Counted from the whole stretch's first letter, positions 9,900 to 56,500 are shown. The stretch: 63,789 bases of DNA, filler included, from 9 parts of 9 records of this genome joined end to end with filler, not necessarily neighbours in it, one strand, 5' to 3'. The notes: a model not told the origin generated them from the sequence alone. Numbers and translations are program-made.

Positions 9900-12800
9900 A
9901 TGCTGCTGGCCGCTGTTGCTGGGCTGCTGTTGCTGTGCGGGCACGGCGGTTTGGCCTCGCCGATCGGGAACGGGCTACTGCTGCCGGCCAGCCCGGCCAT
10001 TCAGTACAAGCTCGAGAGCTCTTATGGCTGCTTCGACACTTGGACCTCCACCCTGCCGCACGTGGTTCAAGTGACTATGACCCGGGAGCCTGGCAAGAAT
10101 TGCGCCGGGGCGGCCACGCTGGCGGTCCGGGGCGATACCGCCATCGACAAGCGACACGCGCTGTCGGTGTTGGCCTCCAATCTAGGCACAGACCAGACCG
10201 AGCAGTGGCGGGTGTTTGTGGATCGAGTGGATCGAATACAGATCCTCACCACTTTCCGGGACTTCTACATGGACGACGTGGGCATCTTCAAGGCGCGCCG
10301 CACGGCCCGGCCTGGCCTGATGCCCCCGGCCGGCAGGTCCAAGCCTTCGACAGCCAGGGCAACCACTTCTCCACACTGGACGGAATAGGGTTTGAATGGT
10401 CCGTGATAGCCCGCCAGCCCAAGCGCACCGCAGCGCTCAAGAAGGCGCGCTGCCGGCTGGTCCGGGGCGAGCCCGGCGCAGGTGCGGCTGGCTGAGCTGC
10501 ACGACACAACTGAGCGGATCACGCCGGCGATGCTCGCCATGGAGGCTCGAGGGCTGCAGCCGCACATGGTTGCGCTGCACGGAGTGCTCACCGGCAAAGT
10601 TACCGTCCAGTGCAAGATCAGCCAGCAGCCGTTCCAGGCGGTCGAGCCCTCCGCGGTGGATGTGCATGTCACCGAGGCGCTTCAGCTCCGGCCTGCGCAG
10701 CCGTCGCCGTTGGTCGTCCCTCCGCTCGCCTCCTTTCAGTTCACGCTGCTGGCCTGGCGCGGCCGGCGGCAGCAGCCGAGCAGCAGCCGACCGCGCGAGC
10801 GGATCGGGCAGCTGCACATATTCGATATGCCGAGTCCTCAGTACAAATGGCGCTCGGAGGACGATGCTGTGCTCCCGATAGATCGGGGCACGGGCCAACT
10901 GGTGGCCGGCAAACTGGGCCAGTCCACTGTGCACGTGGAGGACCGCAACCTCGAGCTGAACAAGCAGTCGGCCATCGTGACGGTCGCAGAGCCCCACAGA
11001 CTCCGACTCTTTCTCGAACGGCTCTCGAAAGACAGCACACGGTGCGGCCCGCGCCGCCGGCCCATGACTGACCAGGCTACAGCTGGTCCGAGCTGCGTCG
11101 GCCGGAGAAGGGTGGGGCGAGCTCGCTGCAGCTGCTCCGGACTGGCTGGCCTTCGGAGGGGACGATCGCTCGGATGCTACAGGCACACGAGTATGAACTC
11201 TCAGCTTTCATGTTCTCTGAGAGTGGTGCGGCCCGGGCGGCGGAGGCCGGGCGAGCGCGGGTAGGGCTCGAGATGCTGATCACGGACAATACCAAGATCA
11301 GCTTTGATGTGGACCCCGTGTATCTGGAGGCTTCGAAGCAAGCGGGCGGGTCAGTGCTGTTGAGAGGCTTGAAGCGTGGCATGACCACGGCCACGGCGCG
11401 GCTCGAGAAAATCATCCCACCCGAGTGCGGATGGGCTGGCGACTGCCCGTGGCAGGCAGTGCTGGCTGGCCAGGTGTGGCGGCTGTGTTTTGGGCGGGGT
11501 GAGCCGGGTGACAGGCGACGGATTGGGCTATCAGTGCAAAACTCGAGATTCTGATCGACGACCCTGTGCTCGCCGTCCCCAGCTGCCCGCTCAGGTTCCC
11601 GGCGGTGCACGGGGTCGGCCACAGCCTGAATCTAGCCGGAAAAGGTGCGCATGGCCCACAACGGCCGTAACCACATTCAACAGGCGGCTCTGGAGCTTAC
11701 AAGTGGCAGTTGATGCCTCCCAAGCAGGGGCAGCACAAGCCGGCTGTGAGCGTCACCCCGGCTGGGGTGGTGTCTGCCCCGGGCGAGCCGAGCAAGGACG
11801 GCGCTTCGGTGATTCGGATCACCGACGCGAGCCTGCCACTCAACTCGGCTCTTTGCCCCGTGAGCTGCTCAGTCCCGACTCACCTCGAGGTGCTGGCTAC
11901 CCCGCAAGAGCTGCCGGTTGGGGGCGAGCTGCTGCTCGAGATCCGGCTGACCGACGCCAACGGTGAGCTGTTCAACAACTGCTCCGCACTGCCGCTCCGA
12001 TGGGCGCTTTCGGATAGCTCTATCCTGTCGAACTCTAGTGTTGAGCGGCCGGCCGGACTCAGACCGGGCGTGTGCGCCTGGCAGCGGATGCGGGCCGAGC
12101 AGGCCGGCAAGCTAGAGATAGCTGGCCGGTTCCAGAACCTTCACGGGAGCACGAGTGTGAGCGTGTTCAGGCCTCTTACGGTGGTCAGTCCTCGCTCGAA
12201 GCGACTGCTCGTTGTGCTCGGGTCGTCGGCCACTATCGAGTTTGGAGGCGGCCCGTTCGGGGGCGCAGGCAAGCTGGTGGCGTCCAAGCCGGACCAGGTG
12301 CGACTAACGGCCCGAAACGACGATGCTGCCCAATTCATCTGGGAGGTTACATGCCTCGAGCTCGGGAAGCAGCGACTGCTTGTGCGGATAGTTCATCCAG
12401 CCAATCGGTCCAAGTTCTACGAGCAGCCTGTCGAGTGGGAGTGCGCCGTCCCGAGCGCACTCGCAGTAGTGCCTGGGTACGAGCCTTGCAAGCTGGCTGC
12501 GCAGCCACCTTTGAGCATCATACGTCATGTGCTCTCGCGAAGCACCGTAGCTACCAGGCTGCTGGCTTTCAGCGCGGCCGGAGTACAGTTTGACGGGACA
12601 GATTCAATCCAGCCCGAGTGGACAGCTCAGCCAGTGGCGCCAAACACTGTCCAGCCGGTGCTCGAGTCGGGCAGTTCTAGGCTGGACAACTGCTCTTGCA
12701 TCTACCGACTCGCTCAGATCGGGGGCGACGGTGAGACGATCCTGGTGCAGGCAACTGCCAACCAGGTGAAGCTAGTGAGCGGGTCGATGGTCGGGTTCTC

Positions 12801-15800
12801 TGGCAGCGCAAGCCTCGAAACACCGCTGAGTGCAAGCCTCGAGCTCGTCCCGACCGCCCACCCGTCGCTCAGCCCGGACCGGCTGCTCGCTTTATGCGAC
12901 CCGTCGAACGCTGTCAAGCTCCGGGTGCTCGGGGGGTCAGGCTCGATGCAAGTGGCGTTCTCGCCGAGCTCTGTGGCCTCGCACTCGACGGACTACTCGA
13001 GCTGGACTGTCGAACTCGTCCCCAAGGCATGCAACAAGCAAGTGGTGGTCACAGTAACCGACTCGCTGCTTCATGGCTCCAAGCCTGTCTCGGCCACAGT
13101 TACATTCTCCGATGTTGAGAAGGTCGAGATCGAGGCAAGCCCGCAGCTCGAGCTTGGCACCTCCGAGCAGGTCACGCTCTCGGTGTTCGGGATGGGCGGA
13201 GACCAGTTTGGCTCATCCGAAATCGGCAAGATGCACGTGAGTTGGGAGAGCCTAGACCCAAAGCGGCTGCTGCTCGAGCCGCATAAGACGGTCGGCAGCG
13301 AGGCCACTGTGCAGGCGGTGGCTCCAGGGCATGTTTACATCCACGCTGCAGTCCAGGCGGTCCGAGGGCCTACTGTGGTGAGCTCCAAGCACCAGGTCCG
13401 GATATTCCCAAAGCTGCAGCTGCTCCCTCCACAGCTCGACCTTCTGCTTGGGAGCTCGTTCCAGCTGCAGCCGTCCGGTGGGATGCGGACTGGGGTGGCG
13501 CCTTCGTTTGAATCTTCAAACAACCAGTCTACTAAGGTACTAGAAGGCTCGGAAGGGACAGTGCATGCGGCCGCTGTCGGACTGTCGACAGTGACGCTTA
13601 CAGAGCTCTCATCAAGCGCCAAGCAGCTGGCTAAAGCCCAGTCCATAGTGCGCGTGGTCTCTCTTTCTGAGTTCCGGATCGCCCTCCAGTCCTCCAAGCT
13701 GCTGCTGGGCAACGAAATGTCTGTGTACGTCGAGGGGCCCAACGGTGAGTCACCTTTCATGTTCTCTTTCGGCGCAGCCGACTCTTTCCGCTGGGAAGTC
13801 TCGGACCCGTCAGTGCTGTCTCTAGTCTCTGCGTCCGGGATGGACACACCAAAGTCGTCGGGGTCTTTCGGGGTGAGGCTGCGGGGACTCTCTCCGGGCC
13901 GAGCGGAGGTCCGAGTGCATGTGGAGTGGCAAAAGCCGTGCTGCTCGAAGACGCTCGAGTGCCAGGTGGCAGACACTAGCTGCCCACCGCAGACAGTGAG
14001 CTACTCGACCTCGGCTGCGATTGTGGTGAATGAGGCCCTGGTTCTGGAGGTGCGCAGCCCGCTTAGAGTGTTGCAGGTGGGCTGAGTGGATGGGTGCAGG
14101 GCCCGTCGGAGGTGACGCTACCACCCAACACCAAGTATGCGATCAAGACCAATGCGGACGAGGCTCAGTTGGTCTTCCAAGTTGTAGGGACAGAGGGCAT
14201 TGTGACCGTGGACGCCATGGGCATGATCACTACTCGGGACACACTCGGCACCTGCCACGTGCTGATCCAATCAGCCGCAGCTGACCACTCTGTGGTGGTG
14301 ACTGTACATGTCCGCCAGATGCATCAATTGATGCTCGTCCCTCCGATCATCACGGCTGTCGGCCAATCAGACGAGCCCAGTAGCAAGTCGGTGCTGCTCC
14401 CTGTTGGCTCATCTGTGCTGATGGATGTCGTGGTGGCCGATGAGGCGAGTGGCCGCCAGTTGCTGTAAGCGAGCTGTGAGGACAGGTTGGTAACAGCTTC
14501 ACCACCATCGGCAACATGCCCGTGTCGTTCCTGCGGGACAGGACCGATGTTCTCAAGGTGGCTTCAGACTGCCCTCCACTTTTTACCATGTGTACCCTGC
14601 TAGGTGGATAGAATCAAAAGCAAGCCGCTCCAATTCAGGGTGACGGCAAAGAGCCCTGGTGACGTCGCCATGAGGATGTGGATCGACAAAAGGCAAGCCC
14701 GCCCATAGCGGCTGCTGAGCTCACTCGTGCTGCCAGTTTCTCCTCCTCGCCTGGCGCCGTGCTGGACGACTTTGTCCGCATCTCCGTGGGCAACATCATC
14801 GCCCCACAGGCAGCCACTGTGCTGGTTGGAGGCTCTGTGAGCTTCTCACTCACCTCTGGGTTTAAGAACACAAGCTCAGCAGGCAGCCCGACCTGGACTG
14901 TCGCCAATTCTGACGTGGCCGCAATCGACGCTGTCACCGGAGTGGCCAGCAGCTTGCGGGCAGGCTCCACATTAGTCCAAGTGAATACTGAGGCCATGCG
15001 GTCGCATGGACTGCTCACTGTGGTCCGACTGTCGTCGACCGGAGCCTCGATCGCTCCGGCCCCAAGGCAGCCGCAGCTGAGTGACTTCGACCAATCACGC
15101 TCGTATTACTTTGAGGTTGGTGCCAAGGATGCAAGAGGGGTGCTCATCTCGCCGTCGGCGAGCACGCCGGGTATCCGGCACGCAATTGAGCTCAAATGCT
15201 CGTGCTCTGGACCGGCTGCTAAGTGGGCTACCCCGTCTGCACAAACGGACAGCAAGACAGGCCAGCTGCGCTGCATGATCCGCTTCCGCCAGATGCCAGA
15301 TGACACTCCGAGCCAGCAACCGCTCACAATTACTGCTACAATCAGCGACGCTGTCGGCAGCGACACTGTCCGTGTTTCGACTGAGGCGACTGTAATCCGA
15401 GGCCTAAAACTTGCCCAATTTGGGGAGGTTCTGAAGAAGCAAGAACTGGCGCTCAGTGGCCCGTCGGAGCAATATGAAATACGTGGGCACTGCCCAGGTG
15501 AGGGGGTGCAAATCCAGTCGGCATCCAAGGCGATCTCAGTTGGGCCTGTCACAGCCGCTGGACAGGACGCATACAGCTTTAGTATCAAACAAGCCGCGTC
15601 GTCCCCCCTGCTGTATAGAGGCAGCTTCATCACAGTGAGCTGTTCAGCTACGGTGCTACCTGCCTGCTGCTAATGCTGAGCCTCCGGTCAGGTGCAGAAG
15701 CTCAGAGTCCCGGTGCAGCTCCAGGGTGGCGAGGCCCTGGCAGTAGACCCCGAGTGGTGAGCATCGAGCCAGTGCCCATTGCTGACCCCCCGTGCAGGCT

Positions 15801-16110
15801 GCAGGCACAACTCGAAGACAACCAGCCTGCGCTCGTGCTGCTCGTCACGGTGCTGGCTATATTCGTCGGGCTCTGGTTCCTGAGCAGCTCGGCCGGCTCC
15901 AAGCACGTGCCGGCCCCGGCCCAGTACCAGTCGCCGCTGCCGTCGATGCCCCCGCCGTCCCGGCCGGGCACATTCTCGCCGGGGCAGGATTCCATACTGC
16001 GGTCGACTCCTCCATCGTTTGGCCGCCCAACTCGGGCGTCGCCGAGCCACTCGGGATGGGACGATTCGCCACTTAGACCTGTGTTTAGCTCTGCGAACCA
16101 ATATAGCTGA
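9900..16110 (+). CDS. NUP210: Nuclear pore membrane glycoprotein GP210/NUP210, multi-exon
   Basis: Signal peptide MLLAAVAGLLLLC; GP210-like N-terminus LLLP..YKLESSYGCF.W and VDRVDRIQILTT..VQAFDSQGNHFSTLDGIGFEWSV; serial Ig-like repeats; C-terminal TM plus Ser/Pro tail; about 13 micro-introns. Confidence 0.9.
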
Positions 16111-16449
16111 AGGGATCGGGACTAGCGATCGATATCACTAGGATTTCATGTAGCTGTGCTTGCCCCGTTGCAAGACTTCGTGTGCACAGACAATCGAATA
16201 CAGCAATTTTATGCCATTTCATTAACGATTTGATCACAATTTAACAGTAATATTAATAACGGTTGCAAGTAGGTCCATCCGCCCCTTTTATATAGACACT
16301 TCTGTGAGGCGGAACACATACTTTGAACAAGAGCTATGTAAAAGAGGGATATCACTAGGATATCACGATTTGTGCATGTTTTAATAACGCAGTGATCCAT
16401 TTTATCCACGTGTGTCCACTAGCATCGACCTACATTTTCGGGCCACGGT

Positions 16450-17679
16450 TTAGTCCTTGTGGAGGTGCTTGAGCGTGGTATCTTCGCGCACCACAGTCTC
16501 GAAAACCTACCCCAGCCATCGATCGGCCAGCTTGGCCGTGCGCTCAATTACATTGTACTGGAACATATACTTCACGCCTGCAGAGATCAGCGCCGCTACG
16601 ATCAAGTACACAATGAAGTACTGCAGCAGCGCGTACCGAATCGTCTCGAAAAAGCCGGGCCGGTACCTGCCAACTGACTCAGCCCAGGCCGCTGGGCTGG
16701 GCCACGCACAGCACATCTTGCTCATATGGTACCCTGAGCGTCGTGTACAAGTTGAACTCATCGGGCCTGCCGGCCACCCACACCGTGGCCGGGTTGCCGG
16801 GCTCAGTGGTCGCTGCCCACCCGCGTCAGCCGGCAGCGGCAGTTGCTGGGCTCACTGTTCCGTTTTCGATACTCATTGAGAAGTGATGTGAATCGGGCCT
16901 GCGCCACAGAGTAGATCGTGGTACTATTGAGCAGACTGCTGTTATACACAGTCTGCCACTGTGAAGACGCGTCCAGATAGCTCCGTTGGCTGCCCCCAGC
17001 TCGCGCCTGGCCATCGACGGCCGCTCACCGCAGATCGACATCGGCGTAGAAGTGGCACTCGGATCCCGGGACCGACGCTGAGTAGTCGAGGTACATTGCG
17101 GATTCCATCTGGAGCTTCACCCTGTCGTCCAGACTGTAGTCGAAGAACGCGATCAGCCGGGCGTGGTAGATCGACTCAGTCGAGGCCAGCGGTACCCGCG
17201 CATTGATGTAAATATTGTCCGGCTTACCGTCAAAGTTCACATCCTCCGAGCGCGACTGCCACACCGGGCTCAGCCGCAGCCCGGGGGGTGGTGGGGCGCC
17301 TGGATCTCGCTCGGGCGGTAGGTGGTCTGCAGCATGGCATTGAGCTGGTCGTAAGTGCTCCAGACCAGCTCGGAGCCGGTCTGGTCCCCCCACTCAGGCC
17401 GGCGGCTAGCCGGGGAGCACCGTGTTGCCCTCTAGCATCAGTATCATCTGATATTTAAACTGGACGGTCGGCTGCGTCCACAGGTAGGCTCGCTTCAGCC
17501 AGAAGGCTGCACCCGGCCGGTGAGCTGGGTGGCCGAGCGGCCGCACGTTCTATGTTGTAGCTAATCACGAACGGAATCACAATCTGGGCGGCCAGCGATA
17601 GCGCCCGGAATATGAAGGCGGTGGAGAAGTAGGAGCCGTGGTAACGCCGCATCACCGGCCACGAGAACAGCTGCACCAT
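16450..17679 (-). CDS. TMEM231: Ciliary transition-zone protein TMEM231, multi-exon
   Basis: MVQLFSWPVMRRY..., FWLKRAYLWTQPTVQFKYQ, EDVNFDGKPD, YRPGFFETIRYALLQYF and spliced end VFETVVREDTTLKHLHKD* match the TMEM231 layout. Confidence 0.88.
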
Positions 17680-17811
17680 CCTCACCCGCTGGCCCTGCCG
17701 CTGGCGTCTGGCGTCTGCCGGGGGTCAAGTGGCGATTCCAAATAAAAATCCGAATGCCGTTAGTGTGGCGCCGGAGGTGATCGGAGAGGGTGGCCTGGTC
17801 CCCGCAATCCA

Positions 17812-18981
17812 ATGGCGGGGAACTACTGGAAGTCGACGCACTGGTGCGCAGCCGCTGGGGCCTCGGCTGAGGGCGCGCAGCAAGCTGACCGACCGGCTCA
17901 ACAGCGCCGAGTCCCGCAGCCAGCACGAGAAGGCAGCGCGCCCGCCCGGCCCCGCGCCAGCCCTGCGGTCAGATCACTCGAGAAGACTGCAAGGCTGCCA
18001 GTTTGCCCTGGGAAGCCGCCCGTCTGCTCCCGATGCACCTAACTCAGCGTGCCCTCCGGCCCGGGCGGCAGCGGGCGACGCCGGGCAGAGATATTCCGTT
18101 GCGCGCGGATGCTCGACTTGCGCGTGCAGGTGGCGGCCACGGCCAGCGTCTACCTGAAGCGGTTCCTGGTCCGGTGAGGGGCCGGCGGTGAGTCGAGCTG
18201 ACGCCCCGGCAGGATGGGCCTCACACGCTGGGATCCTGGGCTGGTGGCACCCACGTGTCTGCTGCTAGCCGCCAAGGCGCCGGCCGGATGGTGTAGGGCG
18301 AGCCGGGCCGGAAGGTAGAAGAATACCCGCCTAAATGGCAGACCCACCCGCCGAGCCCGTTCGCGGTGAGAGTCTCCGACTGCTGGTGCCGGCTCGGCGG
18401 TGCGCTGAGTACAGGCGTGTGCTGAGAGCGTGCAGGCAAGCACTGTGCGACCGATCCAGGTCTGTTATTGGAGATGGAGTTTGTGGTGGTGGACGCGCTG
18501 GCCGACTCTCTGCTCGTATGCCATCCGTACGCCGCGCTGGAGGTGCGGTCTGTCGGTTGGTTGAGTCTCAGCCGTTGCAGGGTCTGCTCAAGGACGCAGG
18601 CCAGCCACAATTGCTTGAGCATGCTTGGTGAGGGTGGCGGTGGCGGGGGGGAGACTGGTATGGTGCAGGAGCACCGTGAACGATGCGTATATATCCGATG
18701 TAGTGCTGCTATGGCCGCCGCATATTGTGGCGGTAGCGAGCATATCGATAGCCGCCATCCTGAGGAAGGTGGACCTACGTCAGTGGCAGGCCTCGCTCAA
18801 TTGCGATACGGAGCACATTGGGCAAGTGATGACAGAGATGCTGGCAGTGTACGAAATAGTCGGAGATAAGCAAAAGTTTGAAAACGAGATGGCGCAGATC
18901 ATTTCGAGTCTCGACAGATTCTTTGACGCCGCCAATTCAAAACGCGCAAAACATGATTACAATAGCCGGTCACCCAATTGA
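17812..18981 (+). CDS. CCNC: Cyclin C (Mediator kinase module), multi-exon
   Basis: MAGNYWKSTH, QVAATASVYLKRF, TCLLLAAK|VEE, LLEMEFVVVDALADSLLVCHPY and VNDAYISDVVLLWPPHIVAVA; 7 micro-introns. Confidence 0.9.
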
Positions 18982-19173
18982 TTGACTGAATCACAAGTAC
19001 AATATGCGACATAAGTCCCCCTTGGAGGGTCAGTTTTTGCATGTCTAAGTGCAAACAATTACACGATTTCTATNNNNNNNNNNNNNNNNNNNNNNNNNNN
19101 NNNNNNNNNNNNNNNNNTTAATTAATTAANNNNNNNNNNNNNNNNNNNNNNNNNNNNNNNNNNNNNNNNNNNN

Positions 19174-20315: not shown

Positions 20316-20459
20316 GCTCACCAAGCACAAGGCAACAACAACTGGCCCAAGGCCCTGATGTCGTCACCCTTGGGTCCAAGGCTTGCACTCGTGATGGCGT
20401 CAGATTCCGTTGCAAAATCAATGGTTGAAGACGACCCTGCAATTATCTAGGCTCGCGTG

Positions 20460-22296
20460 ATGGGGTGCGCAGCGTGCAGCGCGATGGAGGACACGGATGA
20501 GTACCACGAGTGCCGGATCCAGGAGATGCCCCAGCCTGTTTCACTCGCCCTCTTCCTTGCCCACCGCACCGCCCGGCTCCGCACCGCCGCATGGCTCCGG
20601 CTGCTCACCCGATCCGGCCTGCTCCCAGCTCCCGATCGCCCCAAGCTCTCGCACGCCGGGTTGGAGCTCCGGCTGCCGCTCACACCCGATCTGCTACAGA
20701 CTGCCGTGCTAGAACTGGCTGCCGGCAGGCCAGTGGCCCCTGGAACCCTCGGGGGGCTGATCCGGGCCGCCACACGCGGACTGGCGGGTCAGCCTAGCCT
20801 GCTCCGGGTGGGCCTGGCGCGCCGGGTGACGGTCGCCGGCCAGCTGCGCGGGAGCCTGTCCGACTTCAAGCAAGTACTCGAGCGGAGCGGGCTGCAGCAG
20901 GAAGGCGACAGCGCGCTGGTTCTGGCCGGCGGGATCATCGGGCCAGCCGGCGGGCTGCCGGTGCTGATCGCGGCGCTCGGCTGGCGGCTCCTGGCCCCGG
21001 ACCGGGCGCTGCTGCTTCGGGGAGGGCCAGAGGACAGCTGTGTGGCTCAGACTGACGGGGTGGCCCCGCGGCCTAGAGCCGGCTGAGTGCTGGCAGTTGC
21101 TTGAGGAACTTAGCTCCATCTTCAGTCCGGCCGAGGCGCGCGAGCTGTTCAGGCTGTGCGGGCTGGCGTTCGCGGCCATGCCGCTGGTGAGTGCTGCGGC
21201 TGGCTCTAGTGAGCGTCTCGCAGGCGGTAGTGCTCGCGGAGAGGGCGCTGGTTGTCCACGGAGGGTTGTGGGACGGGATGGCAGGCCGGGCCGGGCTAGA
21301 CCTGCTGGCGGAGCTGTCGCGGGCCCATGAGGGGGAGGCCATCCCGGAGCTGGCTAGTTTGTCTACTGGTTTGGACCGAGTACCTGGGCCGGGCAGCATA
21401 GTCGAGCAAGTTGTGTGGGCCGAACCGCAGCTCGTGGGGCAGAGGCGCCCGCCTGAGCCAGCCCGGGCTGACTGGGGGGCAGCGAGCCGCACGGGCGAGG
21501 GGGAGGGTACAGCATGGAGCGTCTGCAGACGGCGCTGAGCAACGCAGGACTCGCGAGCATGATCAGAGGCCAAACGGTCCGGCCGGCCCCGGCCCGGCTG
21601 AGCTGCGTGCAGGCGCTCGGAGACCCGAGTTGGCGGGTGTGGGAGCTGGCCGACGGGGCGAGCCGGCTGTATGGGGTGAGCTCGTCGGCCGGGCCGTGCT
21701 GCAAGCCGGAGGCGGCGGTGCTCGTATTTCACCCGGACTGGCTGCTGCCGGAGCCGCAAGGCTGGCACAGCCGGCACCAGAAGGGCTGGCCGCTGCTCGG
21801 GCCGGAGGAGCTGGTGGCGATGGTCGGCTGGCACAAGCACAAGATCGAGCGCGCTCTGGGCCCGCATACCAGTCAGGCCGGCACCTGCACGAGAGGCTGC
21901 TGGGAAGCGGCGATGGAGGCGGCCGTCCCTTTCAAGATGCCCTGGTCGGAGGTGCAGCCGCTGCTGGCCCCGGAGGATCAGAATGGGGAGCTCAATGTGA
22001 GCCGGTTCCTGGGTAGCCTCGACAGCGACTGCTGTACCGAGCGAATGGGCACCTCGGGCGCCAACTCAGCCAAGCTTGAGGCAATCGGGCTGTACATGCA
22101 CAAGGCCGGCTGCCAGGAAGTGATGTTCGACCAGCTGAGCAAGATGTGTGCGCTGTTGAACAAGCACGATCCGCCGGCGCTGGCAGGGGAGCGGCATCTT
22201 GAGCCGCTGAATGCGGGACGGGTGTTTGAATTGTTTGGCAAACGGAATAGCGACGGGATCAGTCTGCAGGAGGTGCGCAGCATGGTGCAGCTCTAG
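20460..22296 (+). CDS. PPEF/RdgC-like PPP phosphatase with degenerate catalytic motifs and EF-hand-like C-terminus
   Basis: MGC N-terminus; VTVAGQLRG, LAGGIIGPAG, LRGGPED, LVVHGGL and VVWAEP sit where GDxHG, GDxVDRG, RGNHE, HGG and WSDP are expected; C-terminal FGKRNSDGISLQE. Confidence 0.7.
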
Positions 22297-22467
22297 GTGG
22301 AGCTCGCGGGCATGCACTGCATGAATTAGACATATCGATACTATCGGTTTAATCATATTTAAAAATGTACACTTGATGCCTTACTTGTAAGTCCTATTGC
22401 ATGTCCTATTGCCCCAACAACGTCGCCGAGACAGCCCGACCAGCAGGGAGCCTGGGCCGGTGCCCGG

Positions 22468-25052: not shown

Positions 25053-25088
25053 ACTGCGTTGTTGCCCGATCCCAAATCCGTTAAAACA

Positions 25089-28302: not shown

Positions 28303-28586
28303 NNNNNNNNNNNNNNNNNNNNNNNNNNNNNNNNNNNNNNNNNNNNTTAATTAATTAANNNNNNNNNNNNNNNNNNNNNNNNNNNNNNNNNNNNNNNNNN
28401 NNAGGAGAGGTAAACTAGGAGAGGTAAACTAGTATATTGGGGACTCCGCGGAAGGCATTGGTCCGCTCGAGCTTCTTCGGGTTGCGCCTTGAACATCTCT
28501 GAACGATTTATGGTCACTGGTTTTGCGTCATTCAAGTCAGAGTCGGCAGCTCAGATCGGTCAGTCCGAGACAGCTTCCCGGGAACC

Positions 28587-38978: not shown

Positions 38979-39080
38979 NNNNNNNNNNNNNNNNNNNNNN
39001 NNNNNNNNNNNNNNNNNNNNNNTTAATTAATTAANNNNNNNNNNNNNNNNNNNNNNNNNNNNNNNNNNNNNNNNNNNNCA

Positions 39081-43012: not shown

Positions 43013-43191
43013 TCTCAAGGACGGCCGAGCCGAGAGCCACCCGCGCTCGGGCCAGCTCGAGGTCCGGTCCTCGCGTGCCAAGAGGGGGGGGNNNNNNNNN
43101 NNNNNNNNNNNNNNNNNNNNNNNNNNNNNNNNNNNTTAATTAATTAANNNNNNNNNNNNNNNNNNNNNNNNNNNNNNNNNNNNNNNNNNNN

Positions 43192-46392: not shown

Positions 46393-46671
46393 CGATCGTA
46401 CGAGCGCGAGCACTTGAATGTTCAAATTGTTTAATTACAATATTTTATTATCGTAGCGGCCACAGACATTTCACGGCCACTTAGATCTACATGTACATGA
46501 ATTGTACTATCGTGTACAAGTCTATACAAGTCGAGGTTCAGTGCTAGTTCAGGGCAGTGTCTGATGGCAATCTGACCGAATGGCATTGTATGTTAATTGT
46601 ATGTACTTGAGTTTGCGACTCTGCGCTGTTCTCTCTGGCCACCCAGGTCGTCGGCATCGATTAAGCATCGG

Positions 46672-49429
46672 TTACACGTTATTAGTAACATCGGTTCTCT
46701 GGGTGCTCTGTCCGCTCTTCTCCGGATCCGACGAGATCGCCCGCAGCTGCTGCTTCCTCCGCTTGTACTCCACCTCGTCTATCTCGCCGGCACTGCGCAG
46801 CTTGCGCAGATCGTCCAGTCGGGCCCGCTTCTCTTCCTTGGAGATCGACTCTTGGATCGAGGGCAGCGGCAGCTCGAGCTTGTCGTCAGGAGGCGGCCCC
46901 GCCTCGCCCATGATCAAGTTCGGAGTCACGCCGGCCTCGGACGGCGTGTCCTTGCTGAGCAGGTCTGTGTTCTCTGTCAGATCGTCGGCTGTGGGCGCGT
47001 CTTCCAGTGTCTCAAACAGTCGGACGGTGGCATGTCCCATCACCTCGATTTCGGGAATGCTGGTGGTGAAGATCACAGTCTTTCGCTTCCTGGAGCCTCA
47101 CCAGTCAGTCAAGGCTGCGAGCGGTTAAGCACCTGGCATTAAAGTCGAGCTCGTCGTCGCACTCATACCCCAAGCCACGGTTGTCGATCATCGACTTGAG
47201 CACGCCGATCACCCTATCCCGACTCTCCTTACTGAGCACGTCGAGCGTGTTCGAGAGCAGAAGAACATCCACCGAACTGAGCAGCGCCCGTGCGAGCGAG
47301 ATCATCACCCGGTCGCTGTTGGACAGCCGCTCGCCGTGAATCCCAACCGTCCGGTCGCCATACTTTTGCTGGAGATGCCCAACCCCAAGATCCTCGCACA
47401 GCCCCCAGATGTGCTCCTCCTCAATCTCCTTCTGGTTGCCAAACCTCAGATTCTCGAGCACAGTCTTGTCGAAGATCGCAGGCTGGTCGGTTACGTATCT
47501 CACCCGCAGGTCTTCAGGGTACCAGAGGAAGCCCTTGGTCGGTATCAGGATCTTCCCGAGCAGCTTGAGCAGCGTCGCCTTGCCCACGCCGTGCTCCGCG
47601 CTCACGGCGATCATCCCTCCTTGGTCGATCACCAACCAAATCGGCCCCATCGCCGGGCCTTCCTCGTTCACCTGGGTGTAAGCATGCTCCACCCCGGCGA
47701 ACACGATCTGGTCCTCGTCGAAGTCCGAGTGCGCCGCCTGGTGCTCGGCAAGGCTCTTGACCCGGTCCTCCCTCTGCTGCAGCAAGGCCTTCCGCCGGGT
47801 GGGTGCGTTGAGCATGGCAGCCACCGACTTGATCACTGCGTACCCGTTGACCATTTGCATCACAGAACCGAAGAGCGAGAGCACCTGGTAGTCGAAGTTG
47901 AAGATGGTCATGATCAGCACCACAAAGTCCCCGTACTTCATGTTGTTATCGATAGCCTCGTGCGTCGCTACGACGAACACGACCGCTGCAAGCGCCTTGT
48001 GGAACCACTTGACAATCCAGCAGGTGCGCAGATTGTAGCTCTCCTCCACTCCACCGGTCTCGTCCGACTGCGAGTGAATCCGGTTGAACTGCTGGCACAC
48101 TTGGCCGCCCATCCGGTGGCTGGTGATACAGTTCCGGAGCTCAGTTGATTCAGCAGTCAAATCCCTCCACTCGCGCGACTCCTCGTGGAAAGCTTGGTAC
48201 AGCAGCGCCTGCTGAGGGGCCCGGCAGTAGAAGACCACAAGGTCGAACGCAAGCATGACGATCGGGAAAGCCACCAGCCAGGCCTGCTTGCGCACCGTGA
48301 AAATGATTATGCACATCATGGTGAGCACGACCAGAAGGTTCTGCCAGAGCTCAAACAGGTTGAGCCAGACCAGCTCGACGGTCTTGGCCAGCCCGTGCCC
48401 CATCAGGTCGACCACCTCGCTCCACGGGAATTGCTGCTGCGCATCCATCGTGAGCTGCAAGTTGCTGTTGAGCACCGACGTCCTCAGGTGTGCCCTCGCC
48501 TTGCCGCCGAGCCCGAGCCCGTGGCACAGCTCCTGGACCACCACCTCCACGAATCCGTTCATCACGTACAGCGCGGCCAGCAGCCAGAGTCCTGTGTGCG
48601 AGTCCTCGGGTATCACTGTGTCCACGGTCACCAGCAGCACCAGCGTGTTTATCAGCCAGCCGACCGCAGGGTAGCTCTGTCCCCGCACCCTCATTGGCGG
48701 CCGGGCGCGGGCCTCGCCTTGCACAGCAGGGCGAGCAGCGTTTCGTCCGGGAAATAGTTGGCCATGTGACGGAGGAATCCCGATACCATCCTCAGCTGGT
48801 TGTCAGTCTCTTCAACCTGCGAAGGGAACGCATCCTGCGCACGAGCTCAGCCGACCCGTCGGGCCCAGCGGCACGCGCCTCGTTCAGGATGACCACGGTG
48901 GTGGACTTGAGCTGGCCGAGCGCGCAGTTGACCGGGCTGCGGGTCGGAATCAGGGCCGGCGGGGGGTAGGGCTGCCTGTGCAGGTGGACGTGCTGAATCG
49001 CCTCCATGTTCCATACATCGTTCTGCTTGATCTCCAACGGGAACGACCGATCGAACTCGCCCTGGTGCATGGTGAGCACCCCGGCGAACTCGCGGTAGCT
49101 TTCTTTGATCACGCTCATGTTTTCGGTCTTCCATTGGACCGAGACGTCGCCTCTCCCGAGCCCCTTGCGCACCACCTCGATCTGAATGCTCCCCGCGTCC
49201 TCGCTGCAGAGCTGCTCCACAACCCGGAACGACACCTACCCCCCCCGTCCGCCCCGGCCGTGCTATATCCCACCGTGTCCTTCTCGAGCTGCGGCGGCGG
49301 CTGCTTGCTCTTCACCAGCGGGAGCCCGCCTTTAGTGAGGACCGGCTCGCTCAGGTGCGGCACCCGAACCTCGGCCCGCACCCGCCGGATCTGCCCGGAG
49401 GCCTCGATCACCGCCGGCAAGCTGCTCAT
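46672..49429 (-). CDS. Calx-beta domain plus ABC half-transporter (TMD plus degenerate NBD), multi-exon
   Basis: Calx-beta (CSEDAGSIQIEVVRKG..VSVQWKTEN..GVLTM..EIKQND); about 6 TM helices; NBD with SAEHGVGKAT, TVLENLRFG, LSNSDR and VDVLLLSN. Confidence 0.85.
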
Positions 49430-49519
49430 CGCCTCACAGCAGACCGTGTTGCCAAACCATTCGCAATTTTCGGTGAATCGCAACGGCAGCTCATCAGCAG
49501 CTGCAGCCAGCCTGTGGCG

Positions 49520-49835: not shown

Positions 49836-50133
49836 CAACGGGGGAGCGAGCCGAGTAGAGCTGTGGTAGAGCTGTGGNNNNNNNNNNNNNNNNNNNNNNN
49901 NNNNNNNNNNNNNNNNNNNNNTTAATTAATTAANNNNNNNNNNNNNNNNNNNNNNNNNNNNNNNNNNNNNNNNNNNNTGAGAGCGGCGGGCTGCTGGACG
50001 GGCTGCGAGTGGTCGAGCCTGCGCAATCCAAAAGTCCGTTGCCATCCGGCTTCGAGCCCTCCAGAGCACGCCGGCCCGAGACACAGTTGAGGTGAGCCGG
50101 TCGGCGGGCGGGCAGAGTGAGCCGCTCCCAGGA

Positions 50134-51468
50134 ATGCCGGTGTACGAGTGCCGTCGGCCGTGGCCGGTGCATGCGGTCGGGTTCAAGCGGGGCGGCTGGA
50201 CGATGCAGCACAAGCGGCGCGGACCGGTCGACTGCGTGCTGGCCGCGTTGGCCAGCAGCGGGCCCCGCCTCGAGAACCGCGTGGACATAGGTGCGCGCCC
50301 GGTCGGCCCGGCCAGCCCGGGGCAGTGGCGGTGCCGCGGCGGAGCGAGCCTGTGGTAGAGGATGGGGCCGTGGAGCTGGTCGAGCCGGTCCTCTCGTTCG
50401 CCCACCCGCACCCGACCACAAAGCTGCTCTGGTCCCCAAACCCGCGCGATCAAAACAGGCTGGCCACCGCCGGCCAGCAGCTCCGGCTGTGGCAGTTTGA
50501 GCCCAGCGGCTCGGGCCCTTCGCTCTCCGGAGAGCTGCTTGACCAGCCCTCGGTCCGGAGCGGCTGGGAGTCTCAGTCCGATCAGGCCCCGATCGCCGCC
50601 ATTGTGAGCGCTCGGGCGACCAGTCTGATCGGCGGGCCAGGCGGGCGACGGGGGGCCGGTGATCTCGTTTGATTGGGCTGAGGCTGCGACCGACCGGGTT
50701 GTGGTCTGTGGCCTGGCTGGCTCAGACGAGGCCAACTACAGCGTCTGGTCGCTCGGAGGAGAGCCGCGCAAGGAGTTCCAGCTGGGCCCGGCTGGTCTCC
50801 AGACCGACTTCTACGACGTGCGCCCCGGCCGGGCGCCGTCGAGCGGTGGGCGCAGGTCGGGTTCCAGCCTGGGAGCGAGGGACATGTTGCGGTCGCGGCG
50901 TACAAACATCAGGCCGGCCAAAGCGGGCTGATGCTCGTGGACGATCGGCAGCCGGAGCCGGTGCCGGTGCAGGCCCAGTCGGGCGGGCTGCCGGTGAGCC
51001 TGGACGGGTTAACTAAGCTGCACTGGAACCCTACTGTGGGCAGCCAGCTGTCCTGCTCGCGCCCGGGTGAGCTGCTAGTGGGCGACCTGCGGGGCAGCCA
51101 GCTCTGGGTCTCGCAAAACAAGCTCACCGCGACCGCCGGGGCCGCCTGGCTGCCCAAGCTAGTGCAGGGCGAGGCGGGCGAGCCCGAGGCTCGTATGATT
51201 TCAGTGTCTACTCGACCTGGGAGCAACCCTTACCTCTGGAGGGTGTACGGAGAGCCGAGCGAGCTGCTGCTGCGCGAAGACCACTACCTGGCGCTGGGCA
51301 ACTCGCTCGACGGGGACAACCTGCCCACCAACGTCCAGTGGTGCCACGACGACGAGCGCTTCCTGGCGCTCGTGTTCAGCCACAAGATGCAGGTTTACTG
51401 CCGAGCCGGAGCCGGCTTGAGCAGCGGGGTAGGTGTTGGATGTGGGGCAGTTGCTCATGTACAACTGA
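50134..51468 (+). CDS. Divergent DCAF7/WDR68-like WD40 protein, multi-exon
   Basis: YECRRPWPVHAV, ENRVDI, FAHPHPTTKLLW, LATAGQQLRLW and API..FDW parallel the DCAF7 N-terminal motifs. Confidence 0.75.
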
Positions 51469-51629
51469 ACACGACTGCACGTCGCATGAGCTTATTGCAT
51501 AAGTATCATATGGGATATCTATTGAAACGACACATTCTTTTAGTTTAAACGGCGACTTATTTGTGGCAAAACTGAGCCTTATATTCGCAAAGTTGGCCTT
51601 GACAGCCAAGCAGTCCAAGCTATAAGTGC

Positions 51630-53000
51630 TCACGCCTTCGAGTCGTCTTGCGTCATGACGTATCCGCCTTGATTCATCTTCTGCGTGCCATATCCCTTCG
51701 CTGCCAGCCGTTGGCCGACTGCATTCGCCATCACCACGCTCCGATAGGCGAGGCCCTTGGTCTGCGCTATAATAGTCTCGTACACCCCGGCGTGCTGGGT
51801 GCCCATCACCACGTGGTTGGAGCGCGAGTCGATCTTGGCGTCGAGCGAGGCGTTCCGGACCAGGTTGACGATCCACTTCTCGGCTTGGTTAGGATCCTCC
51901 ATGTGAAGCTTCTGCGCCAGCATCCCAATGTCAATCTTCCGGTGGATCCTGCAGTAGGTCTCAAAGATAAACACCCGGGCGTTCTCCAAAAAGTCCTCGC
52001 GCAGGTCCCGCAGGAAGTAATCGTTCTCAATCGCCTTCTCGCACTCTCCCAGCTGGATCTGAGCCTGATCAAAGTCAAAGTCTACGTACAGACACTCGAT
52101 AAACTGAGTGACCGGGTCCTGGTAGGTGTACTGCTCCTGCTGGATCACCTTGACCAGGTCCTTGAGCAGATTCCGCCTCCGCTTGTTGCAGATGACTGCA
52201 CTCGTAAGGTACCGCAGCACATGAGGGCAGTTGGTCTGGATTGTATTCAGGTAGCGTTCGCTAAAGCACAGATCTATCATCCCGTTCCGGCCCCGCTCTG
52301 CCACCGGGTGCTTGAAATAGACAAACAGACTCCAGTGGATCAGCCACGAGCGCTGCTGCAGCTGCTCCAGGTGTGAAAGGTTGCTCCTTGCATCGATTGC
52401 CTCCCGCAATTTGGTCAGGTCCTCAATCGCCACGTCCCAGTTGCCCATCAAGATCTCCGCCGCCAACTTGCCCCACAGCGAACTCAGCTTGCTCGCCTCG
52501 TCCTGCCCTACTAGCCAGTAGTGCGCCAGCAACGCAGACGCGTCCTCGTAAGCCCCGCATTCGAACTGAATCTTGCCATAGTTGTACAGGGCCTCGATCT
52601 GCTCCGGGAGGATCTGGTGGGCCTCCTGCAGGTAGCTCGGGTTGAACAGCTTCTCCATCCGCAGCTGCTTGACCACCGCCTGGTCCTGGAGCAAGTCGAG
52701 CATAGGCTTGCACCGCTCCTTGGCCGCCGGGATGTCCTTGACGATCTGTTCCCGGCGCTCGGTCAGGTCAGCCGGGACCTGCTGGCCCGGGTGGAGCTGC
52801 TTGAAGATCTCCTGGGCCGAGTCGGCCATGTTGGTCCGCTTGAGCAGCTCGAGCTTTGCCTGGACCAACTCGACCGCCGGCTTGCTCGGGTCGGCCGGGT
52901 CGGCGTACACCTTGTGCTCGGCCAGAAAGTCCAGGATCGGGATCATCAGGTGCGCGTCCAGGAACTGGCCCACCTCGGACGACAAATCATACGCAGACAT
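51630..53000 (-). CDS. EIF3E: Translation initiation factor 3 subunit E, intronless
   Basis: MSAYDL..FLDAHL, SSLWGKLAAEIL, LQQRSWLIHWSLFVYF, IFETYCRIH and WIVNLVRNASLDAKIDS. Confidence 0.97.
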   Translation of the reverse strand: MSAYDLSSEVGQFLDAHLMIPILDFLAEHKVYADPADPSKPAVELVQAKLELLKRTNMADSAQEIFKQLHPGQQVPADLTERREQIVKDIPAAKERCKPMLDLLQDQAVVKQLRMEKLFNPSYLQEAHQILPEQIEALYNYGKIQFECGAYEDASALLAHYWLVGQDEASKLSSLWGKLAAEILMGNWDVAIEDLTKLREAIDARSNLSHLEQLQQRSWLIHWSLFVYFKHPVAERGRNGMIDLCFSERYLNTIQTNCPHVLRYLTSAVICNKRRRNLLKDLVKVIQQEQYTYQDPVTQFIECLYVDFDFDQAQIQLGECEKAIENDYFLRDLREDFLENARVFIFETYCRIHRKIDIGMLAQKLHMEDPNQAEKWIVNLVRNASLDAKIDSRSNHVVMGTQHAGVYETIIAQTKGLAYRSVVMANAVGQRLAAKGYGTQKMNQGGYVMTQDDSKA

Positions 53001-53110
53001 CTTTGGTGTTGAGAGAGCGGACACCAACCCGGCGCGTCGTGCCACGAGCGAGCTTCGGCGCGTAGAGAAAGAAATGAAAAATCGAGGAAAAAGCTGCAGT
53101 GCGAAGAGAC

Positions 53111-53460
53111 ATGGAGAGCCCACCGATTCCGGGCAGGCCGGCTGGGGATGCTGGGGCCAGCCGGCCGGGGCAGGCTTCGAGGTGGCGCGCGAGCTGGGCC
53201 GGGGGCACGGGCAGCCGGTGCTGCTCTGCACCCGAGCCGAGGACGGCCGCCAGTTCGCGGTCAAGCAGTTCTCCAAGCGGGCGCTCCGCCGGCGGTGCCG
53301 CCCCGCCCTCGGGGCAGGCCGACCGGGGGCAGCCGGCGCGGGCCGGGGCACGACCCGGAGGCGGAGGTCCGGAGGGAGATCGCGATCATGAAGCGCGTGG
53401 CGCACCCGAACTGCGTGCGGCTCGAGGCAGTGATCGAGCATGAGCAGACGCTATACCTCG
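53111..53460 (+). CDS. Protein kinase N-lobe (CAMK/CAMKK-like), 3' truncated
   Basis: FEVARELGRG, FAVK and VRREIAIMKRVAHPNCVRLEAVI, across two micro-introns. Confidence 0.85.
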
Positions 53461-53583
53461 GTGCCCGGGCCGGGGGGGGGGGGNNNNNNNNNNNNNNNNN
53501 NNNNNNNNNNNNNNNNNNNNNNNNNNNTTAATTAATTAANNNNNNNNNNNNNNNNNNNNNNNNNNNNNNNNNNNNNNNNNNNN

Positions 53584-56500
53584 CGAGGCTCGGAATCCCT
53601 GACAAGGCTCCGGGCGGATGGGTGACAAAGCTCGAGCTGGCCACACTGATTCAGGACACCTCCAGCCTAGTTGAGCTATCCAGGCCGCCCGCGATCGCTG
53701 AGCTGAGAGACTTTGAGCAGCTGGTCAACAAGTTTAGCACATCTTACGGCCCGACTGCTGCTCTAGGGCTGCTCACGCTCATCCGGCGGCGGCTGCACAA
53801 CTGCCAAGTGTCCGGGCTGGCCAGGGCGCGCGTGCCAGTCGAGCTAGAGGCTGCCCGCCAGCCGCACCAGGAGGATCTGGCCAGTCCTCTCCAGCGGGTG
53901 TATGGAGGAGGGCGGCAGGCCGGAGTTTTTGTCGCAGTGGCTGGGCTGCTTTCAGAGCTTTTGGACTCAAAGCAGCCGACCACACACGAATGGGTGCCAA
54001 TGCTGTATGGATACCAGGAGCTGGTGCAGCCGTCCACTGGGCTGATGGTAACCGGATTCCACGGCTTTTGATGTATAACTGACGGCAGGTGCTGGATTGG
54101 CTTCAGCCGATCGCGACCAAGTTTGGATTCTTCTGGGCTGGACTGCTCGCGCGGCAGGTCCAGCCGGGCCGTCCCAAGCGCGTCTGACAGAGCCCAACTT
54201 ACAGATCGTCCATCGGCTCAACTGCAAGGGCTCTGGGCGGGCCAGCTCGCCGGGCTCGAGCCGATCCGGGTCGGTCCCGTCGCTTGGTCGAGTATCGCTC
54301 ACCTCGTCGGTGGCTTGCCGAGCCCGGGCCGCTTTTTATGGCTGGGGCAGATGCCTGCAGCCGGCGAGGAGTTCCAGCCAGTCCAGCTGCGGCAGATTGA
54401 GGAGCTGTTCAGGTGGCGCTTAGGCCGACAGAGGGCCAAGCGGTGCGGACGCAGGCACGGAGACGTGAACGGGAATGGGATGCTGGACAAGGCAGCCATT
54501 CGTCAACGTGATGATGATATGATTACTAATGTGCTGCTGGCGTGCAGGTAGAGCTGTTGCTCTTCTTTGGAGGCGACGCTGATCGGATGATGGTCAAACT
54601 TGACACAAACGACGACGGACAGGCTCCTGTTGGGCCGGGCAAGTTTATTGATAACCGGGGCAGGTGTCGATGGCCGAGTGGATTCAATTCATGGCCCAGC
54701 TCAAGCACCAACGGGGCGACGCCTTCCTCAACTCGATCATTAGGCCCTGGCCAGCCTCTGGTCAGGCTCACTCTGCAGCAGGTTTTGGCAATCACGAACG
54801 CATGAGACGCTCAGATCTATCAACGCAGACCAAGCCGGCCCGAGCCCACTCGACCGCTCCGAAGCCACCCGGCAGCCCCGGGCGTGTGCACAACTCACTG
54901 GCTCGTCCAGGCTGGCCGCGCTGTACTCGTCGGCAATGCAGCTGGACCCGACCATCTTTGGCCGAGTGAGCGCCTCGGGGCTGTTTGTAGCGCTGGGTGG
55001 AGACGTCCAGCAGTTTCTTTCGGAGCTTGTGATCCAGCCTGACGGCACGGTGCGCCAGACTGCCTTCCCCCCCGAGCGCCGGGCTAGGTCCGGTTCTGTG
55101 ACTTTCTCAAGCTTATGCGGAGATTTAAAGCCGAGTCAGGAGGTATGTGACTTGTTCGAGCTGGGCGTCTGCCTGTGACCTGGGCCAGGCACGATGCTCA
55201 CTAGTGCGCTCGAGCTCTTCGAGAAAAGAGTGGCTGAGGCCGCCGAGGCCAAGGCTAAACGCAAGGCTCGCAAGTTGCCTGGTGGATTCAGCTGGTTGGT
55301 GTGCATTAAGTACGGGGTGCAGAGTCGCTCAGACTGAGGATGGGCGCTCTGTACAAGCAGACGTGCGCGCTGCTGGCAACTGGCCAGGACGAGACCAGCC
55401 TGGACTCTGCTGTGCTGAATGTGGCATTCGGACGGGTCTTCCCCAGTCTCAAGGGCCAGGTGAGCAGCAGCAGTAGTAGTGGAGTGTTCCCAGGCCTGAG
55501 AAATGAGGTGACAGGTGCGGCTGGATGACTGGCTCGCGTTTGGCACTGAGGTTCGCAAGGACCACGGCGAGATGTTGCTGCACTATCTGATAAGGCAATC
55601 ATTAATATCATTGATCATGTTCAAATGTCAAGTCAGGTTCATCGAGGCCCGCAGCAAACAGCTCCGCGCATGCTTGCAGCTTGAGCCTATCCCTGAGCAC
55701 CAGCTGGCGCTGCTCGTGGAGGAGCTGTTTGGGGCCATCTGCACTGGGCAGCCTGCGAGCGTTGGGCGAGCCGAACTGCTACAGCTATCCAGTGAGGAGA
55801 TGCTCGACCCGAAGCGGTGGCCGGCCTGCTGGTGAGTTGGGTCGGGGGTATTTCGAGCCGGCTTGGTAGGTATCCGTTGCTGACACTCCACGATACAAGC
55901 TCAGTCTCGCTCGCGCAGTTCCAGCAGCTCATTGACGCTCTTCAGGCGCGCCACCAGGCTCGCAACCGCTGAGCCTCGGCAGCCTGACGAGGGCAAATGG
56001 CAACCTGGTCAGCTGCACCGAATCCATGGGTGCAGCTCGGTACTTGCGAGCTGGCTCCACCAAATCAGGCAGATCTGGTGCCTTAGTTATCGGATGTCCA
56101 CTGAGCTCATCTGCAAGGTGTCGCCGACGATTGGAACACCGAGCAGTTCTTCCTGAACCGGACCGTGCGCGCGCGCTGCAGCTGTTTGCCAAGAGCAGTC
56201 AGGGCGAGCCTCAGCTCAGCCTTGCCTCGCTGGCTACAGCTGACTGGCTTGAGGCCGTGCCAGTGAGCAGCTCGATTGCTAATAATCCCTGGTGGTGATC
56301 TTGTTGCAGGATAAGGATCTAGACCTCTGGTTTGGGCTGGCGGGTGGCGGGCCGGTTTCAGAGCACTGTTGGCTGGCTGGGCTGGAGGCATCCAGGCCAT
56401 GTGGTGTGTGTGAGCCGGTCGCAGGTTCTACACGGGGAGGGCCGCGACGTGAGCGGCCAGCTCGACAAGATGAGCCAGGCTGCCGCAGAGTTCGAGCTCA

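Follow-up and report, generated by a model that had tools for sequence, protein, structure and literature searches.

Tiny GC-AG introns in a GC-rich stretch of DNA, probably from a marine eukaryote

The 63,789-base stretch of DNA analysed here, which we call the window (62.2% GC; its 704 N form eight paired runs), carries eukaryotic nuclear genes, as judged by Pfam, and raises the question of whether its very short introns begin with GC instead of GT as often as an initial annotation had proposed, and whether introns of this kind are in fact spliced. All fifteen intervals put forward there as GC-AG introns do start with GC, end with AG and directly follow an exonic AG, and they are as small as had been claimed: their lengths are 37-56 nucleotides (nt), with fourteen of the fifteen within 37-44 nt. 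The observation is real at the level of sequence, and the use of the sites in splicing is verified for about half of them. GC-AG introns are real in this DNA: one is established by RNA and seven of those listed by homology. We consider it probable that the source is a GC-rich (62%) marine eukaryote with ordinary introns of the major spliceosome (U2-type), about 41 nt long, of which roughly one in seven begins with GC, those seen doing so directly after an exonic AG.

The pattern by itself is not above chance. Both strands of the window together hold 710 AG/GC sites (the slash marks the exon border) and 1038 AG/GC..AG pairs of 36-56 nt, 185 of which combine CAG with a length of 37-46 nt. Since the bare pattern is so common, it is the context that decides, and evidence independent of the donor is required for each claimed intron. 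In addition to RNA and homology we therefore used a donor-blind ranking, in which in-frame candidates are ordered by the coding log-odds kept, a 3' matrix and the length distribution, the letters of the donor being ignored; the matrix and the length distribution were trained on supported GT introns only, and known introns were treated leave-one-out. The fixed-position 3' weight matrix sets introns about one standard deviation apart from other AG sites and was used inside the rankings only.

The most direct evidence is RNA. Metatranscriptome contigs of three runs were aligned to the N-free stretch 9262-19073 only and cover parts of it; the single gene that they cover fully is a homologue of TMEM231. 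The contigs that show introns there come from two runs of two studies (X2 and X3). Seven stretches of 39-45 nt in this gene are skipped by the contigs, six of them GT-AG and one GC-AG:

16418-17724, minus strand: TMEM231 homologue (Pfam)
16507-16551, minus strand: GT-AG intron, 45 nt; X2 and X3 contigs
16667-16709, minus strand: GT-AG intron, 43 nt; X2 and X3 contigs
16813-16855, minus strand: GT-AG intron, 43 nt; X2 and X3 contigs
16990-17028, minus strand: GT-AG intron, 39 nt; X2 and X3 contigs
17256-17299, minus strand: GC-AG intron, 44 nt, exonic AG before it, absent from the earlier list; X3 contig with 81 letters on the shorter side
17381-17420, minus strand: GT-AG intron, 40 nt; X3 contig
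17507-17546, minus strand: GT-AG intron, 40 nt; X2 contig

The joint at 17256-17299 has four possible cut positions, just one of which yields GC..AG, and none of the others yields a canonical pair.

Protein-level evidence is clearest in the gene for cyclin C. A search with its last exon led to three transcript-derived relatives (P0298-P0300; 274-282 residues long, encoded by contigs of cDNA size or taken from a transcriptome) that are 60-67% identical over this exon. When the spliced model is aligned with them, seven of its eight junctions are passed without a gap, both listed GC-AG introns included:

17.8-19.0 kb: cyclin C gene (Pfam)
17844-17880, plus strand: GT-AG intron, 37 nt; gap-free against P0298-P0300
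17933-17972, plus strand: GC-AG intron, 40 nt; junction ..SQHEK/ITRED.. gap-free against P0298-P0300, donor-blind rank 1 of 163
18049-18088, plus strand: GT-AG intron, 40 nt; gap-free against P0298-P0300
18174-18212, plus strand: GT-AG intron, 39 nt; gap-free against P0298-P0300
18277-18314, plus strand: GC-AG intron, 38 nt; gap-free junction, donor-blind rank 1 of 64
18415-18459 (GC-AG, 45 nt) or 18409-18459 (GT-AG, 51 nt), plus strand: intron 6, ambiguous, both versions in frame
18543-18580, plus strand: GT-AG intron, 38 nt; gap-free against P0298-P0300
18628-18668, plus strand: GT-AG intron, 41 nt; gap-free against P0298-P0300

The restoration of LAAK/VEE that had been predicted for 18277-18314 is borne out, ..LLLAAK/VEEYP.. 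aligning without a gap to ..LLLASKVEEYP.. of P0298. The relatives do not decide the donor of intron 6 because their loop is longer there. A textbook-like donor, GTGAGA at 18366 (18366-18414), is coding according to all three relatives, which puts the actual intron downstream of it. Related cyclin C loci were sought in metagenome contigs and none were found.

Solved structures place a further GC-AG intron in the PRMT9-like gene:

TPR-PRMT protein, with PRMT9 structures as its top matches in the PDB
36034-36074, minus strand: GC-AG intron, 41 nt; exact spacing to the PDB structure, immediate TAG on read-through, donor-blind rank 1 of 27
35965-36007, minus strand: GT-AG intron, 43 nt; reading frames and PDB spacing
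35815-35858, minus strand: GT-AG intron, 44 nt; reading frames

Its 62-residue exon aligns with PRMT9 and PRMT7 structures through the E of ..AVE, which is residue 94 of the solved PRMT7 structure 4c4a, and the exon past a 9-residue mini-exon aligns from residue 105/106 of the same structure. Removal of 36034-36074 and 35965-36007 leaves 10 residues, so the spacing to 4c4a is exact. Using a GT donor 9 nt upstream would remove the conserved VE.

Domain continuity bears on two introns of NUP210, a gene in which consecutive parts of Ig-like domains are spread over three reading frames:

About 9.5-16.1 kb: NUP210 gene (Pfam)
10293-10336, plus strand: GC-AG intron, 44 nt; frame switch from the Ig_NUP210_1st to the Ig_NUP210_2nd open reading frame (ORF), donor-blind rank 2 of 86
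10445-10481, plus strand: GC-AG intron, 37 nt; continuity of PF22969, donor-blind rank 2 of 41

The Ig_NUP210_2nd match (profile positions 16-47) begins at most one codon from the acceptor of 10293-10336, for which the top GT alternative is 59 nt long. PF22969 runs over positions 16-47 in the exon 10337-10444 and over 52-108 from nt 10479; its position 47 lies at nt 10429, five more residues lead to 10444, and the next exon starts from position 53, with neither gap nor overlap. A search of metagenome contigs for loci related to the NUP210 exon found none.

Two more introns lie in the EF-hand gene, where the canonical 12-residue loop pattern of EF-hands was used for comparing splices:

54492-54547, plus strand: GC-AG intron, 56 nt; the only splice that yields the canonical 12-residue loop DVNGNGMLDKVE
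54623-54663, plus strand: GC-AG intron, 41 nt; loop DTNDDGQVSMAE after splicing, donor-blind rank 1 of 137

With both GC-AG splices the gene encodes two canonical loops, and the GT alternatives, or no splicing, lose one or both: the in-frame GT alternative 54508-54551 destroys the loop DVNGNGMLDKVE, and the two extra residues that come with 54629-54663 disrupt the loop DTNDDGQVSMAE. The exon before 54623 aligns with the loop of S100-A11 up to the exon's last residue, which is loop position 7, a weak match (E 0.05); a PDB search with the exon after 54663 gave no match.

The claim that the fifteen sites are real introns therefore stands in part. Seven have support at the protein level (17933-17972, 18277-18314, 36034-36074, 10293-10336, where the support is looser, 10445-10481, 54492-54547 and 54623-54663), six are compatible with splicing, with donor-blind ranks of 1-3, and two, both in the EF-hand gene, are unsupported:

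14445-14485, plus strand: claimed GC-AG intron, 41 nt, NUP210, compatible; rank 3 of 30, an in-frame GT rival at 14459-14496 (38 nt) scoring nearly equal
14693-14736, plus strand: claimed GC-AG intron, 44 nt, NUP210, compatible; rank 2 of 22, best GT alternative 59 nt
21445-21482, plus strand: claimed GC-AG intron, 38 nt, gene at 20429-22319, compatible; between ORFs 21191-21535 and 21472-22293, best GT or GC candidate and rank 2 overall
32011-32050, minus strand: claimed GC-AG intron, 40 nt, LRR gene, compatible; rank 1 of 93, GT alternative 32011-32059 of 49 nt
48677-48717, minus strand: claimed GC-AG intron, 41 nt, gene of a divergent ABC transporter (Pfam), compatible; rank 1 of 27
48835-48878, minus strand: claimed GC-AG intron, 44 nt, same ABC gene, compatible; rank 2 of 69
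54744-54781, plus strand: claimed GC-AG intron, 38 nt, EF-hand gene, unsupported; rank 6 of 169, coding signal weak on both flanks
55595-55636, plus strand: claimed GC-AG intron, 42 nt, EF-hand gene, unsupported; rank 68 of 239, AT-rich

The NUP210 intron at 14693 leads to the ORF 14663-15670, which bears an Ig-like domain. In the ABC gene, the GT alternative to 48835-48878, at 48796-48842, is rich in A at its 3' end, which known introns are not, a single intron spanning both 48677 and 48835 scores poorly, and a search for homologues of the exon returned ten remote matches, none of them close. Over the whole GC set, 12 of 16 introns take donor-blind rank 1 or 2, and so do 12 of the 17 introns known from RNA or homology; when the competitors are confined to in-frame candidates with a GT or GC donor, 13 of the 15 listed ones come first.

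GC and GT introns are alike in size. The 24 supported GT-AG introns have a median length of 41 nt (standard deviation 2.9, range 37-50), in agreement with the tiny size initially reported, and the 16 GC introns, i.e., the fifteen listed and 17256-17299, with eight supported donors among them, have the same median and a range of 37-56 nt (Mann-Whitney p = 0.88, no difference). Intron GC content is 71-72%. Positions -14 to -3, i.e., the 12 bases ahead of the final AG, consist of G to 41-48% and of A to only 8-12% and contain no polypyrimidine tract; the 3' end is mostly GCAG, and a CTGAC/CTGAG-like branch motif lies 11-19 nt upstream of it. The donors seen are GT and GC only, with no GA or other dinucleotide, and the next base is mainly a purine: most introns begin with GTG or GTA, and 14 of the 16 GC introns have G or A at position +3. 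U12-type introns have the donor motif [AG]TATCCTT, with which none of the 40 introns examined starts. A search of the window for small nuclear RNAs (snRNAs) found none. Introns are dense, at 7-8 per gene of 1.2-1.3 kb. Among the TMEM231, ATR, cyclin C and PRMT introns, sets that were found without frame-shift logic, 3 of 21 have a length that is a multiple of three; so low a number would be in keeping with selection against the read-through of tiny introns.

How common the GC donors are can be judged from introns that were not chosen for GC. Three of 20 such introns have a GC donor, i.e., 15% (exact 95% interval 3-38%), two of these three being placed by coding-frame inference; at a rate of 1%, three or more would be expected with a probability of 0.001, which upholds the high share initially claimed. 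The sample consists of TMEM231 (1 of 7, by RNA), the kinase domain of ATR (0 of 4) and junctions between long ORFs (2 of 9: seven GT, and the two GC introns 21445-21482 and 11035-11075). A tenth pair of long ORFs, in the ABC gene, was left out because it had no good single-intron solution. The criterion for ATR was a change of frame while the query residues stay contiguous in tblastn with 150 homologues, and no mapping of the N-terminal ATR exons was obtained with the homologues. Besides those already given, the sample comprises:

To 8463: ATR kinase gene (Pfam)
7361-7406, plus strand: GT-AG intron, 46 nt, ATR kinase; tblastn, 150 ATR homologues
7996-8036, plus strand: GT-AG intron, 41 nt, ATR kinase; tblastn, ATR homologues
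8118-8158, plus strand: GT-AG intron, 41 nt, ATR kinase; tblastn, ATR homologues
8253-8293, plus strand: GT-AG intron, 41 nt, ATR kinase; tblastn, ATR homologues
2766-2806, plus strand: GT-AG intron, 41 nt, ATR long-ORF junction; donor-blind rank 1 of 36
11035-11075, plus strand: candidate GC-AG intron, 41 nt, NUP210, exonic CA before it; top donor-blind candidate between ORFs 10410-11261 and 11072-11551
14050-14099, plus strand: GT-AG intron, 50 nt, NUP210 long-ORF junction; reading frames, its length penalised by the automatic ranking
31752-31791, minus strand: GT-AG intron, 40 nt, LRR gene; rank 1 of 76
40492-40532, plus strand: GT-AG intron, 41 nt, Endonuclease I/EEP ORFs; rank 2 of 115, the top candidate being a 3-nt shift
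47090-47132, minus strand: GT-AG intron, 43 nt, ABC gene; rank 1 of 26
50818-50855, plus strand: GT-AG intron, 38 nt; rank 1 of 115
62564-62601, plus strand: GT-AG intron, 38 nt; rank 4 of 13

The last of these is the sole GT or GC candidate that eliminates the stop between ORFs 60927-62564 and 62591-63559. At least 16 GC-AG introns in the window would fit the share, the total of perhaps a hundred introns being a rough guess.

An exonic AG precedes all eight supported GC donors, seven of which come from the earlier list and were possibly picked for it, as against 7 of the 24 supported GT donors (Fisher p = 0.0006); over the whole GC set the count is 16 of 16. GC donors are described as requiring closer matching elsewhere in the 5' splice site (cf. 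PMC3167603). The association fits this known compensation, and we infer, as the initial annotation did, that the AG on the exon side has a compensating role. With C instead of T at intron position 2, the donor would form one base pair fewer with U1 snRNA, a loss that the exonic AG would offset by its own pairing with U1. High genomic GC, brought about by mutation bias or biased gene conversion, may then drive donors from GT to GC where the AG compensates. The relaxed recognition of the 5' splice site that was suggested initially is conceivable, and so is length-based intron definition, in which the intron would be recognized as a whole; the basis of the latter is the narrow length range only.

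A number of results weigh against ordinary U2-type introns of which about one in seven begins with GC after an exonic AG, and they have to be set beside the evidence above. The sole RNA-proved GC-AG intron, 17256-17299, is seen in one contig of one run, and none of the six listed introns within 9262-19073 is bridged by contigs, which contain exonic pieces only of NUP210 and leave cyclin C uncovered. A single X2 contig also shows three odd joints with non-canonical ends (skips of 111, 274 and 68 nt); these were set aside and may come from another organism. The unselected introns with hard evidence contain one GC donor in 11 (p = 0.10 under a rate of 1%). The candidate GC donor at 11035 would, if real, break the AG rule, since it follows CA. 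In-frame GT-AG alternatives exist at most listed sites, and two of these rivals are close: 14459-14496, and 54508-54551 with its typical length of 44 nt, whereas the listed 54492-54547 (56 nt) is a length outlier with donor-blind rank 32 of 40. Finally, an ab initio gene finder was rejected as evidence after a control of the donor dinucleotide: when it was allowed GT plus any second donor, the use of the latter roughly followed dinucleotide frequency (GC 19, GG 17, CG 16, AG 16). It recovered three of the seven RNA-proved introns and placed two compensating false ones, 7527-7570 (44 nt) and 7717-7768 (52 nt) on the plus strand, inside an ATR exon through which homologues read straight, so GC-rich DNA easily yields false tiny introns.

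The same data admit a stricter interpretation, which we hold to be possible and somewhat doubtful: a two-state donor code in which GT is used in any exon context and GC only after an exonic AG, in introns of 41 nt and 71% GC whose tail is rich in G where a polypyrimidine tract would otherwise lie, within a marine lineage without a named close relative. If true, this code would offer a case from nature of C at +2 being licensed precisely by pairing with U1 at positions -2/-1, and the tiny, GC-rich introns would be a distinct and undescribed combination. An AG rule that held genome-wide would permit a clean natural test of the way in which exon-side pairing with U1 compensates for a weak donor.

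It seems to us unlikely that GC-AG introns are real and common here while the strict AG rule is a selection effect of the earlier list, with many exon contexts tolerated. The wording of that list ("those listed here") allows for a selection having been made, the GC donor of the leading candidate in NUP210, 11035-11075, lacks the AG, and 17256 is the only AG-preceded GC donor found independently of the list; yet this donor, the one proved by RNA, does have the AG, as do all eight supported GC donors against 7 of the 24 GT donors, and compensation at other positions of the 5' splice site is known GC-donor behaviour.

We give little credence to the view that the borders of most listed pairs merely reflect a fit by eye to GC-rich DNA, that the real donors are nearby GTs or the stretches are coding, and that the true share is near 1%. 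The 1038 AG/GC..AG pairs, the GT alternatives, the gene finder that takes any dinucleotide when permitted and the listed sites without RNA proof would all suit it, as would 55595-55636, which could be coding, being divisible by three in length and free of in-frame stops. Against this, RNA proves a GC-AG intron in the one gene that the contigs cover fully, the protein-level fit is exact for seven of the listed junctions where the GT alternatives delete or add conserved residues, and the GT alternatives are mostly 49-89 nt long, beyond the 37-50 nt of supported introns.

That the introns are not spliceosomal in the standard sense, being either structure-defined nonconventional introns of the euglenozoan kind (variable borders, a stable structure joining the ends) or mobile introner copies (many near-identical), is scarcely credible: the C-rich 5' and G-rich 3' parts of introns with 71-72% GC seem able to pair and different introns share 8-10-mers about twice as often as shuffles, but the borders are always GT or GC with AG, folding energy equals that of dinucleotide shuffles (mean z -0.14 for 24 GT introns, -0.09 for 16 GC introns and -0.08 for 40 exon pieces), and the 40 introns, a small sample from one window, share only short k-mers and no long stretches (18 shared 10-mers against 8 expected, shuffle maximum 20).

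About 6% of the sampled words of the stretch 9262-19073 are present in each of three marine or aquatic metatranscriptomes. The TMEM231 homologue is a ciliary transition-zone protein and is expressed in marine metatranscriptomes, which means that the organism probably builds a flagellum. The closest matches of eIF3e are 88, 83 and 67% identical (Logan, JGI and EukProt sequences), with named organisms starting from near 54%:

51633-53450, minus strand: eIF3e gene, one exon, intronless

Its frame is open for about 150 codons upstream of the start shared by all homologues, which cover 75% of the ORF.

In animals, fungi and plants, introns of the GC-AG type are handled by the major spliceosome; those of the window probably are likewise, with a share about ten times higher. 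Ciliates and nucleomorphs have tiny introns of a very narrow length range, which suggested recognition of the whole intron; the narrow range is alike in the window, but their genomes are AT-rich whereas the introns here are 71% GC. For animals, fungi and plants the shares given are about 98% GT-AG and about 1% GC-AG (PMC7072748). A pelagophyte study reports 14-17% predicted GC-AG introns in Aureococcus anophagefferens and about 14% in Pelagomonas calceolata, ascribes them to high GC, and gives average intron lengths of 103-177 bp at 0.1-0.9 introns per gene (bioRxiv 10.1101/2024.10.30.620910). By these figures pelagophytes resemble the source organism as marine protists with GC-rich genomes and a similar GC-AG share, but their introns are long and sparse whereas those of the window are about 41 nt and dense, and no close relative with a name is indicated by eIF3e. 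In Emiliania huxleyi, whose genome is 65% GC, the published account puts GC-AG introns at 56-64%, with a fully canonical AG acceptor and confirmation by RT-PCR and expressed sequence tags (PMC4028052). The comparison with Emiliania drawn in the initial annotation is apt in view of these values, the GC-rich genome and the GC donors with an AG acceptor being alike, although GC is the majority donor there and GT in the window. Diplonema has only a few GC-AG introns and a median intron size below 1 kb, some introns being far longer (PMC10161547). The share is "unusually high" beside model organisms (about 1%) but not beside GC-rich marine algae (14-17% and 56-64%).

Raised GC-AG shares and their connection with GC content are already known, and what the window adds is an intron-dense genome with tiny introns; the literature that we searched held no account of a high GC-AG share in an intron-dense genome with 41-nt introns. 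Gene finders restricted to GT-AG would miss or misplace about one in seven introns of the source organism, and since all but one of the 15 listed introns have a length not divisible by three, every miss would shift the frame of the protein model. This is of relevance for the annotation of eukaryotic genomes assembled from ocean samples.

The names given earlier to the genes hold for NUP210, cyclin C, LRR, PRMT (as PRMT9-like), ABC and EF-hand. The label "PPEF-like" fails: a Pfam scan of 22 ORFs (at least 22 residues) of 20429-22319 on the plus strand gave no match to a phosphatase or EF-hand family, the sole match at E<=1 being the unrelated Herpesvir_UL11 (E 0.36). Pfam searches with 93 single-exon ORFs were mostly too weak, giving faint matches to Cyclin_N, LRR_6 and EF-hand only. 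The remaining features of the window are as follows:

Further genes (Pfam): Ras/Roc GTPase, Kelch protein, LRR protein, DHHC protein, ankyrin protein
9162-9261, 19074-19173, 28303-28402, 38979-39078, 43092-43191, 49878-49977, 53484-53583, 59726-59825: masked places

Each of the eight masked places consists of 44 N, 12 letters and 44 N, and several genes are interrupted by them. Amid the eukaryotic genes there are bacterial-looking enzymes, namely the Endonuclease I and EEP nuclease ORFs at 39079-41777 on the plus strand and a SASA-type esterase at 42146-43090 on the minus strand. The Endonuclease I and EEP ORFs are linked via the 41-nt GT-AG intron 40492-40532, and these genes may be old transfers, the intron having been gained later.

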